Translations under genes and position numbers: made by a program | Shown here: piece by piece, positions 15,541 to 17,126 of the stretch | How positions within the stretch are numbered: position 1 is the stretch's first letter | Layout: each line of letters starts with the position of its first letter | Notes under the pieces: model-generated | What the model saw: only the letters and a program-made list of their open reading frames with translations | Database searches by the model: none | What the model was told of the DNA's origin: nothing | Assembly (NCBI GenBank): GCA_046483985.1 | Contig: JAWOCD010000084.1 | Span: forward strand, 1-64,000 | Direction: 5' to 3' | Source: Promethearchaeia archaeon | GTDB taxonomy: Archaea > Asgardarchaeota > Lokiarchaeia > Sigyniarchaeales > SOKP01 | DNA length: 64,000 bases

Positions 15541-15849
15541 GGGGTACAAAAAGGTGATAGATTCAGATTTCGTTGTGAGGTCAAAATGCCCCACTAATTC
15601 ATTATTCTGTTCTATTAATTCCTTCATAAAATCTTCTCGCTGAGTGGCACAATCATTATCTCTGAATCATTTTGTCCCAAATCGCAGTAACTGGCTAGTA
15701 AAACCCGAAAGGATGCTCGAGGGTATTTTATTAAATATGAAATTCTGAAAAAAAGAATATAAAAAATTCAAACTTTGTCATTTTAGGTAGAAAACTATAT
15801 CCTCAATCAAGAGGGTATCTTGGGGGATCTCCTTACCTTGGGGGCGAGA

Positions 15850-16374
15850 TCACTTCTTAGATTTTCTTTTCTTGAACAATGACTTCAATTCCCCCATAAT
15901 GGCTCCACGCAAGGAAACTGGGTTATTCCCTCCGCCTCCGCCTCCACCAGGACCTTTTGGTGGTCCTCCTGGTGATCCGCCTCCACCAGGACCTTTTGGT
16001 GGTCCTCCTGGTGGTCCTCCTGGTGGGCCGCCTCCGCCAGGACCTGGTGGTGGTCCTCCTGGTGGTGGTGATCCACTGGGAGCTGAGGGAGGTGAACTTC
16101 CTGGAGCTGAAGGGGCTCCTCCGCTTCCTGGAGCTGAAGGGGCTCCTCCGCCTTTGGTTTTAAGCGTATTTATCTGTTTATTCATCTGATTTACTTGTGA
16201 TTCAAGGTTACTGATTTTATTATCTAAATTTGAGATGCTTTCATCAACGAGATCCGGTATCTTAAGAACAATAGTCATCAGTTTTTCGACAATCTCACCG
16301 AACGCATTTACCTTTTCCTCAAGCGATTTATCCTTACTTATAAACCCCATAAATTCTTCGGTAATAAAAATCAC
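15850..16374 (-). CDS. Coiled-coil + Gly/Pro-rich protein with C-terminal basic amphipathic helix (VASP/NPF-like architecture)
   Basis: Heptad repeat N-terminus, GGPPPGP repeats, C-terminal SLRGAIMGELKSLFKKRK. Confidence 0.8.
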   Translation of the reverse strand: MIFITEEFMGFISKDKSLEEKVNAFGEIVEKLMTIVLKIPDLVDESISNLDNKISNLESQVNQMNKQINTLKTKGGGAPSAPGSGGAPSAPGSSPPSAPSGSPPPGGPPPGPGGGGPPGGPPGGPPKGPGGGGSPGGPPKGPGGGGGGGNNPVSLRGAIMGELKSLFKKRKSKK

Positions 16375-16502
16375 CTTAAAAATTATTATTGAAATAATAT
16401 CGTATTGTTTTGTTTAATATATTTGTATTATTATTATTTAATAAATTTAAGTCAATTCTCGGACAAAGTCTAATAAAAAATTGGAAAAATATTCTTAGGA
16501 TT

Positions 16503-17126
16503 TTAACTTAAATCAGTTATAGTTTCTCTGAGTTTAGCCCACAGTTCATTTATTTCTTTGCGAGCTTGTACAAATTGCTCCATTTTTTTCATCAAGATCT
16601 CGTGCGCTCTATCGAACGACCGCTGGGCATCGTTTAATTCATTATCTAATTCGATCATTTTATCGCCTTCAATCATCTTATTTTTACTTTCTTCCACATC
16701 TAACGCTTTTTTAATGACATTTTCCCGCTTATCGGCGACTTCTTCGATCGCTTCCGCTAATTCATATTTCTTCTCAACGAAGTATTCCTTCCTTACCGCT
16801 AAATCTTTGATGGCATTGCGATATTTTTTATTATTGTCAACATAGGTTTCATTATCATGAATTAGGCCTTGAAACATTTTCACATCTTGCTCTGAAATGT
16901 TCGATTTCTTCTCTCGATTTAAAGTTTGCATTTGTTTTAAGGCATCTCTCAAGGTTCTATTCAATGATTCACGGGCAATATTCATATCGGCAAGGCGATC
17001 GGCCAGCTTTTTTTGATATTTGACGACTTTCTTTTGGCGTTTTGCTAAATCCTCGATTTTATCAACCACTTCGTCCTCTGTGTCCGCTAACTCTAACTCA
17101 TCCTCATGGGTAATAATAGGACTCAT
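16503..17126 (-). CDS. All-helical protein, BAR-domain-like
   Basis: 207 aa of long amphipathic helices; last helix ELNDAQRSFDRAHEILMKKMEQFVQARKE resembles SNX-BAR helix 3; GAGGT upstream. Confidence 0.55.
   Translation of the reverse strand: MSPIITHEDELELADTEDEVVDKIEDLAKRQKKVVKYQKKLADRLADMNIARESLNRTLRDALKQMQTLNREKKSNISEQDVKMFQGLIHDNETYVDNNKKYRNAIKDLAVRKEYFVEKKYELAEAIEEVADKRENVIKKALDVEESKNKMIEGDKMIELDNELNDAQRSFDRAHEILMKKMEQFVQARKEINELWAKLRETITDLS

Follow-up and report, generated by a model that had tools for sequence, protein, structure and literature searches.

The machinery responsible for the nucleation or the elongation of filaments in Asgard archaea is still considered undiscovered (PMC9433394; PMC13716822). 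The nucleation machineries have been described as 'yet to be discovered in Asgard archaea' (PMC9433394). In a 2026 Nature paper devoted to Asgard motility, the factors listed around Lokiactin are limited to profilins, gelsolins, one ARF GTPase and BAR proteins, and formins and Ena/VASP appear there only as components of the more elaborate machinery found in metazoans and amoebozoans (PMC13716822). Cultured Asgards use Lokiactin for movement and for protrusions, and the known regulators are only profilins and gelsolins. The closest described element to the gene considered here is the F-actin-binding (FAB) helix of the Ena/VASP proteins, which corresponds to residues 259-278 in human VASP (PMC10340426). 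The present study deals with a short gene read on the minus strand, at positions 15850-16374, of the window, i.e., the stretch of 64,000 nucleotides from contig JAWOCD010000084.1 of a Promethearchaeia archaeon (assembly GCA_046483985.1) that was analysed as a whole. The encoded protein belongs to a family occurring in about half of the sampled Asgard genomes, with a layout that recalls the working part of VASP. It is a candidate for one of the undiscovered regulators of actin, its binding to actin being proposed from a sequence pattern.

The open reading frame (ORF) translates into a heptad stretch, ISNLDNKISNLESQVNQMNKQINTLK, followed by about 77 residues of Gly/Pro/Ser/Ala repeats and by a C-terminal segment ending in ...NPVSLRGAIMGELKSLFKKRKSKK. 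This three-part architecture had been recognised in the first-pass annotation, and the ORF reads as quoted there. Because the same layout recurs in homologues from 156 of the 301 Asgard genomes sampled by profile search, and in 191 matching protein clusters, the sequence comparison disfavours a chance ORF and indicates a real gene. The 191 clusters, collected from the protein collection at E up to 0.01, all comprise proteins of 126-191 amino acids without a Pfam domain, with a query cover of up to 99%, and their named members come from metagenome-assembled genomes labelled as Promethearchaeota/Loki-, Thor- or Hod-archaeal. Similarly, the nearest clusters of the ESM Atlas occur in Promethearchaeota and Thorarchaeota and contain no Pfam families. 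The gene product is a small, previously uncharacterised protein belonging to no named family, and a full-text search of the literature on Asgard WH2, VASP or proline-rich/Lokiactin proteins found no description of its relatives; as judged from these searches, the widespread Asgard family is new.

The distribution of the protein family varies with the family of genomes considered. It is present in 63 of 68 genomes of the host's own family (f1), in 58 of 76 genomes of family f9, probably corresponding to Thorarchaeota, and in every genome of families f2 (7/7), f10 (5/5), f17 (4/4), f23 (3/3) and f5 (4/4), the latter consisting of genomes of 1.3-1.4 Mb read as Odin-like. The host genome (4.06 Mb, 97% complete) contains one copy of the gene and also encodes Lokiactin, with 440 bits to the Pfam Actin family, together with two weak profilin-like matches located below the Pfam cut-off.

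The most conserved element of the family is the C-terminal helix PVSLRGAIMGELKSLFKKRKSKK (residues 152-174, positions 15853-15921, minus strand), designated the ELK helix after the residues E162, L163 and K164. These three residues occupy the only invariant columns in three phylum-spanning alignments, and they are followed in the end helix by a nearly invariant L, F and one basic residue. The core of the helix reads R-x-x-[ILV]-[MLNQ]-x-E-L-K-x-L-[FL]-x-x-[RK]-[RK], and no second conserved motif occurs in the alignments between the linker and the tail. Taking the invariant E as position 0, a hydrophobic stripe only one residue wide runs along positions -7, -3, +1, +4/+5 and +8, flanked by the invariant E and K, and a basic cluster terminates the helix. 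Depending on the clade, the tail reads SLRGAIMGELKxLFxKRK in the Loki type, GGGLMGELKxLLAARR[RK]K in family f9, NVRQALNTELKQLFTKMR in the Odin-sized genomes and SARMQLQSELKELFSRLR in other clades. The conservation of the terminal helix among homologues, on which the first-pass annotation had made its interpretation depend, is borne out by these alignments.

Comparison of the tails with known motifs was performed with a weighted position-specific scoring matrix (PSSM) built from 94 distinct family tails, the background being provided by the ORFs of the host. The FAB helix of human VASP scores 24.0 bits on this matrix, a score reached by only one of 1.14 million windows from the host ORFs, which corresponds to a paralogue of an Arf-like GTPase carrying an ELK tail, and the best unrelated window scores 18.2 bits. 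Shuffles preserving the composition reached 24 bits in 0 of 20000 trials with the whole peptide and in 6 of 20000 with the core only, these shuffle tests addressing the succession of an amphipathic helix and a basic cluster rather than actin binding as such. Lower scores were obtained for the membrane helices of MinD and FtsA (at most 7.5 bits), for WH2 motifs (at most 3.6 bits) and for Lifeact and MIM1 motifs (at most 9.5 bits), and the GAB motif of VASP scores -0.5 bits. Pairwise comparison of the f9-type tails with human FAB yields 11-13 identical residues out of 18-20 and BLOSUM62 scores of 52-60, the best score of 60 being reached by none of 5000 shuffles. The resemblance to FAB, as read from sequence, is real as a pattern, [LI]-M-x-E-[LM]-x-x-[LM]-[LF]-x-x-R-[RK]-K, and the best among the motif classes scored. 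Compared with all PDB chain sequences, the tail profile retrieved nothing beyond a designed coiled coil and cytochrome b562.

The resemblance extends to the organization of the whole protein. Both the family and the EVH2 region of VASP associate an oligomerising helix (presumed to be so in the family), a flexible Pro/Gly-rich region and a short basic amphipathic helix located after a Gly run, such a run preceding the end helix in the f9 forms and in the window copy. A VASP-EVH2-like logic is plausible as an analogy between the two sequences. However, the family proteins comprise about 150 amino acids whereas VASP consists of 380, and their coiled coil is N-terminal and made of ordinary left-handed heptads, whereas the tetramerisation domain of VASP is C-terminal and right-handed. 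The N-terminus of the family is modelled by AlphaFold2 as a helix and not as a PH-like fold; the Pfam scan of the window protein gave no EVH1/WH1 match, nor does EVH1/WH1 figure in the list of families obtained for 32 members with E up to 10. Similarly, VASP_tetra was matched neither in the window protein nor in the 32 members (E up to 10), the scans giving only sub-threshold coiled-coil matches. Membership in the Ena/VASP family itself was considered and excluded, since no EVH1, GAB/WH2 or VASP tetramerisation domain was detected and the order of the modules is inverted.

Several observations weigh against an actin-binding, VASP-like role and have to be considered together. The tail of the window copy shares only 4 of 15 residues with FAB, and its alignment score of 29 is reached by 36 of 5000 shuffles. 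With the composition correction of HMMER, the match of FAB to the motif profile amounts to no more than 3.3 bits (E = 530 for a search of PDB size), and homology of the ELK helix to FAB is therefore not demonstrable from sequence; in addition, the PSSM background, taken from an AT-rich proteome with few G, A and R residues, flatters the score of FAB, and the invariant L and K of the family correspond to M and N in VASP. The likeness put forward in the first-pass annotation stands at the level of the pattern, and best in f9, but is weak for the copy that had suggested it. The hmmscan listing for the 32 members (E up to 10) contains no WH2. The profile gave no match in families f7 (0/28), f24 (0/21), f16 (0/11) and f29 (0/11), these zero counts meaning no match with this profile and not proof of absence; virtually all Asgard genomes are said in published papers to encode Lokiactin. 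The Arf-like GTPase closest to Arf (L123:1577-2497) in the closed f2 genome taken to be that of L. ossiferum, probably the one co-precipitating with Lokiactin, possesses no ELK tail, and a basic amphipathic C-terminal helix on small GTPases also has the appearance of a membrane anchor.

The proline content of the linker raises further objections of the same kind. Loki profilins are reported to be devoid of binding to the poly-Pro of VASP, and those of Heimdall and Thor bind weakly (PMC8410842). Long poly-Pro is missing from the window copy, which contains no run exceeding three Pro, and the f9 forms sampled possess no run of at least four Pro, a single four-Pro run excepted, few other non-Loki forms having any. 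Runs of at least four Pro occur in 81% of 119 members and runs of at least five in 68%, mostly of the Loki type. Because such runs are missing from the window copy and from the sampled f9 forms, recruitment of profilin by the linker would be, at most, a clade-specific addition.

The first-pass annotation had also evoked a WH2-type motif and a nucleation-promoting-factor-like (NPF-like) architecture, neither of which finds support in the comparison. The helix of WH2 reads R-G-A-L-L-x-x-I-R. The Loki-type tail, which starts R-G-A-I-M-x-x-L-K and ends with a basic patch, recalls this helix of the WH2/thymosin-beta4-type G-actin-binding motifs, to which the WH2-like linker of the LKKT type in Asgard two-domain gelsolins also belongs. 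In contrast to WH2 (PF02205), however, the family tail contains no LKK[TV] at the WH2 spacing; no WH2 was found by Pfam scans of the window protein and of the 32 members, and nothing resembling a nucleation-promoting WCA region was found. Readings of the tail as a MIM1/Vps4 motif or as a PIP-box were also tried and dropped, the spacing of the key residues being unfit.

From its sequence distribution, the ELK helix is a portable motif. In the host genome, two Arf-family GTPases end in a long helix resembling that of the family (VLP-like), followed by a short linker and by the tail ...VLSELKNLFDKKK or ...ILSELKEMFVKKG; the first copy is located at L085:1486-2769 (positions 66197-67480 of contig C115 of genome G000) and the second at positions 16212-17744 of contig C87 of the same genome. 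The one copy scanned matches Pfam Arf with 78 bits. Each of the 135 genomes of family f1 contains full-length orthologues of the first fusion, in many cases two or three paralogues, with tails that keep the pattern QVL[ND]ELKxLFxK[KR][KR]. The motif is not restricted to the C-terminus: a Ras-like GTPase of 459 amino acids from another f1 genome (L065:1868-3244) contains PVSLRGAIMSELKQ in mid-chain, between the GTPase and a helical C-terminal domain, and a low-complexity protein of 705 amino acids from a closed f2 genome (L098:2281-4395) contains an internal ...PPPPGSAPKSPQTLRGGMTEELKTLFSK... in addition to its own C-terminal transmembrane helix, the ELK motif being associated there with an internal Pro-rich stretch (…TLRGGMTEELKTLFSK…). 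All of these fused forms came from the genome search; in the protein collection, looking for longer proteins or fusions yielded a single irrelevant match (E = 0.08). Since it recurs on several kinds of carrier, in most cases behind a Pro-rich stretch, the ELK helix appears to act as a short linear motif by which these proteins dock on one common partner. On Arf-like GTPases lacking a lipid anchor, the tail may serve as a means of targeting.

Taking these data into account, the gene product would be a small adaptor, in which the long N-terminal helix would oligomerise as a parallel coiled coil, the linker would act as a flexible tether of variable length, and the end helix would dock into a groove of a conserved protein partner. 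Docking into a groove is suggested because the geometry of the stripe, with its flanking invariant Glu and Lys and its basic cluster, fits such a mode of binding. An oligomeric tether docking by its end helix on a conserved partner, most likely Lokiactin, is the reading tentatively preferred here, with somewhat less than even confidence. Lokiactin would be bound as the FAB helix of Ena/VASP binds F-actin, and an oligomer would expose at least two ends able to bind filaments, which it could then tether, bundle or else link to the membrane machinery encoded nearby, represented by a BAR-like neighbour, and to the Arf-like GTPases bearing the same tail. In those Loki-type relatives that possess PPPPP runs, the linker might also recruit profilin-actin. 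Among the possible partners, Lokiactin filaments come first, as a tentative choice, because of the FAB-like pattern, the Gly run in f9 and in the window copy, the Pro-rich surroundings and the published view that Asgards lack other filament-binding factors; the membrane comes second, as a rather unlikely target, because the basic tail sits C-terminally on GTPases without lipid anchors; another protein comes third and is less likely still.

Targeting to the membrane is judged unlikely, although it is the foremost of the alternatives. The basic amphipathic end helix would in this case lie along the surface of the anionic archaeal membrane, in the manner of the C-terminal helices of MinD and FtsA, and would anchor both the oligomer and the Arf-like GTPases, perhaps in association with the BAR-like neighbour. 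Like the helices of MinD and FtsA, the ELK helix is an amphipathic, net basic C-terminal end piece of a presumably peripheral protein; the net charge averages +2.9 over 31 tails, 11 of which have a Heliquest-type discriminant above 1.34, and polybasic stretches such as KKRKSKK or KRKKRKN terminate some members. In addition, the motif terminates Arf-like GTPases exactly where eukaryotic GTPases bear their membrane anchors, and Asgard Rab-like GTPases lack prenylation signals (PMC10933270), so that such a tail would fill a known gap. That the ELK residues, an acidic one included, stay exactly the same across classes is nevertheless uncommon in helices that bind lipids. The tails have a modest hydrophobic moment, lower than that of the MinD/FtsA helices (mean 0.32 for the 31 tails, about 0.2 in the f9 type), the stripe is a single residue wide, the MinD and FtsA peptides score poorly on the family PSSM, and the motif also occurs internally, both in the Ras-like GTPase and in a protein already anchored by a transmembrane helix.

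Docking of the ELK helix on a protein other than actin is regarded as improbable, at a level slightly below that of the membrane. The partner would then be the long helix of the family itself, the BAR-like neighbour or a regulator of GTPases, and the family would provide a scaffold for the remodelling of membranes by GTPases and BAR proteins in Asgards; in the variant involving the long helix, the tail would close or cross-link the oligomer and pair with the VLP-like helix of the Arf-like fusions. Both in the small protein and in the Arf-like fusions, the end helix is accompanied by the long one, and the invariant E and K flank the stripe like residues at the e/g positions in helix-helix packing. 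However, the tail is also found without the long helix in the Ras-like GTPase and in the 705-amino acid protein, and the AlphaFold2 model, built as a monomer, is uninformative on packing.

Much of what bears on this protein-docking alternative, and on that of the membrane, comes from the upstream neighbour (positions 16503-17126, minus strand), which encodes a protein of 207 amino acids. AlphaFold2 predicts for it, with a predicted local distance difference test score (pLDDT) of 92.5, three helices of about 65 residues (7-71, 79-149 and 154-206), and BAR, F-BAR or I-BAR domains make up nearly all of the top Foldseek matches, the TM scores being 0.58/0.64 for SNX5 and 0.60/0.61 for arfaptin, a BAR domain protein that binds Arf/Arl/Rac GTPases; ACAP4, amphiphysin and endophilin also occur among the matches. 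The Foldseek E-values are weak (0.008-0.1) and no Pfam BAR match was found. The neighbour is a three-helix bundle like the BAR domains of arfaptin, SNX1/SNX5 and ACAP4, the likeness covering the predicted monomer fold only, and in this modelled sense it appears BAR-like by fold.

The association of the two genes depends on the genomes considered. Throughout f1 the order is fixed, with a radical-SAM gene, the 207-amino acid BAR-like gene, the family gene and a gene encoding 575 amino acids, an order that could be due to inheritance alone, and in one f2 genus the BAR-like gene again adjoins the family gene, on the other side and in flipped order. Against a functional scaffold stand three closed f2 genomes in which the two genes lie apart, among which the genome taken to be that of L. 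ossiferum (6,035,313 bp in one contig, with the family copy at 2,628,799-2,629,239), and an Odin-sized genome possessing the family in which the BAR-like gene was not found with this query. The immediate neighbours of the family gene are unrelated in the Odin-sized and f9 genomes sampled; those encountered outside f1 comprise Elf1, transporters and a gene resembling sugar-phosphate mutases (named from its N-terminal sequence only). Small GTPase genes occur 2-3 kb from the family gene in several Odin-sized/f9 genomes, such genes being very common in Asgards.

Two further observations concern the genome taken to be that of L. ossiferum. Its BAR-like homologue, located at 3.02 Mb, was considered as a possible Bar1 or Bar2 of the published work and corresponds to neither, by interpolation of the gene order. 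The Arf-like GTPase of the same genome mentioned above starts with MGIFSLLRRK, like the N-terminal amphipathic helix of eukaryotic Arf with its Gly2, and contains an extra C-terminal domain. The published Lokiactin co-immunoprecipitation data for L. ossiferum thus lend no support to a role of the family.

The last alternative, a generic disordered or structural protein without a part in the cytoskeleton or at the membrane, whose likeness to VASP would be coincidental and whose basic tail would bind, for example, nucleic acids or the ribosome, is very improbable. The shortness of the motif, the non-significant HMMER match of FAB and the unrelated gene neighbourhood outside f1 agree with it, but E-L-K is strictly invariant and the motif recurs both on GTPases and on a membrane protein, which speaks for one specific partner common to all.

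Returning to the preferred docking on Lokiactin, a more ambitious extension can be proposed, which is distinctly unlikely: the ELK helix would represent an archaeal forerunner, or an independent equivalent, of the filament-binding helix of Ena/VASP, and the family, together with the Arf-like GTPases bearing this tail, would make up the Asgard machinery still sought, by which Lokiactin filaments would be tethered, bundled or elongated at sites of the membrane shaped by BAR proteins. If true, a primitive GTPase-BAR-actin module for protrusion would have predated the eukaryotes. The ELK helix also tails Arf-like GTPases, and either outcome, binding to actin or anchoring of Asgard GTPases to the membrane, would fill a gap in our vision of the architecture of the pre-eukaryotic cell.

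The N-terminal helical part of the protein (positions 16150-16362, minus strand) consists of a short acidic-aromatic helix (TEEFMGF) followed by a long helix with I/V-L heptads, the presumed coiled-coil oligomerisation module. In the AlphaFold2 model, calculated from 119 sequences, a first helix spans residues 2-13 and a single uninterrupted helix of 58 residues spans residues 18-75 with pLDDT above 90; residues 77-151 are without structure (pLDDT below 50) and the C-terminal helix covers 22 residues, 152-173, with block-mean pLDDT of 69-88. Since a lone helix of 58 residues must be stabilised by oligomerisation, the long helix of the model would associate with copies of itself into a parallel coiled coil. 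Its heptads have I or V at position a and L or M at position d. The heptads announced as of trimer/tetramer type are present, but, according to the classical rules established for GCN4, this distribution would fit a dimer no less well than a trimer or a tetramer. A fold search with the family model gave only generic long-helix or coiled-coil matches, with Z of about 6.

In this respect, two small subunits of the WAVE and WASH complexes deserve mention. Like Brk1/HSPC300, the family protein is small with one long helix of about 60 residues, and residues 15-77 of the model superpose on trimeric Brk1 with a root-mean-square deviation of 1.2 A over 63 residues and 19% identity. CCDC53 (WASHC3) is similarly a small protein with a single long helix, in which a middle part of low complexity and a conserved C-terminus are likewise present; weak Pfam matches to it occur in 8 of the 32 members, with a best E of 0.017. 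However, the Z of 5.9 is typical of any long helix, the CCDC53 matches remain below the curated cut-off, and no evidence was found for the other WAVE/WASH subunits, which leaves the link with a single-helix WAVE/WASH subunit (positions 16150-16330 of the window) as a lead only.

The linker (residues 76-151, positions 15922-16149, minus strand) consists of disordered Gly, Pro, Ser and Ala residues with pLDDT below 50. In the family as a whole it comprises about 55-85 disordered Pro/Gly/Ala/Ser residues and varies in sequence, length and composition. With 83 residues, the linker of the window copy is the longest of the 119 aligned, the median being 56, owing to in-frame tandem repeats in the DNA (positions 15937-16151, strand not assigned), in which units of 39 and 51 nt occur twice with 91-95% matches and a unit of 27 nt occurs twice with 100% matches; as read from these repeats, the duplications that lengthened this copy are recent. 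The tract of about 70 residues of GAPSAP/GGPPP repeats previously noticed is found again as about 77 G/P/S/A residues, but it is richer in Gly than this description implied (41% G, 31% P) and is not conserved in the family. Relatives of 335-339 amino acids in family f21 (L066:1435-2439 and L067:955-1971) possess an N-terminal helix, a much longer Pro-rich region and a different C-terminus without the ELK helix. Tandem pairs of paralogues, each copy with its own ELK tail, occur in two genomes of the sister families f3 and f4 (L053:3998-4830 and L079:85-973).

The start of the gene probably differs from that proposed initially. The in-frame GTG at 16374, called as start by ORF finders and retained in the first-pass annotation, gives a protein of 174 amino acids but falls inside a Shine-Dalgarno-like sequence, AAGGTGAT (positions 16370-16377, minus strand), whereas the non-canonical ATT at 16365-16363 (minus strand) is located 5 nt 3' of the AGGTGAT Shine-Dalgarno-like site and gives a protein of 171 amino acids starting with MTEEF..., in register with the MAEEF of its relatives; both forms end at the stop codon located at 15850-15852. 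The ATG of MAEEF occupies the position of this ATT in 27 of the 38 copies examined, the window copy included among the 38. In two other genomes an ATA is found at the same position (L057 near 4001 and L058 near 4459), and in these as in the window copy a GGTGAT or GGGGAT site precedes the start by 4-5 nt. In L058 a stop codon located two codons upstream of the ATA leaves no canonical or other possible start. The sequence comparison points to the ATT as the probable start codon.

The gene forms a GC island (0.59 versus about 0.33 in the surroundings), due to its Pro and Gly codons. It is separated from the upstream gene by an AT-rich spacer of 128-138 nt, and a terminator-like hairpin followed by a T-run (positions 15704-15721, minus strand), identified by consensus match only, occurs about 130 nt downstream of the stop. 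Because of this spacer and of this hairpin, the gene is likely to be transcribed as its own unit. Fragments at least 99% identical to the gene (region 15704-16330 of the window) occur in contigs of three metatranscriptome libraries from salt lakes, obtained in two studies; these contigs are short and cover parts of the gene, the uncovered parts carrying no meaning, and they provide weak support for expression, carry-over of DNA being a possible source. In a DNA run from freshwater sediment, the locus occurs in pieces, and one contig skips positions 15768-16471, with 55 other letters in between.

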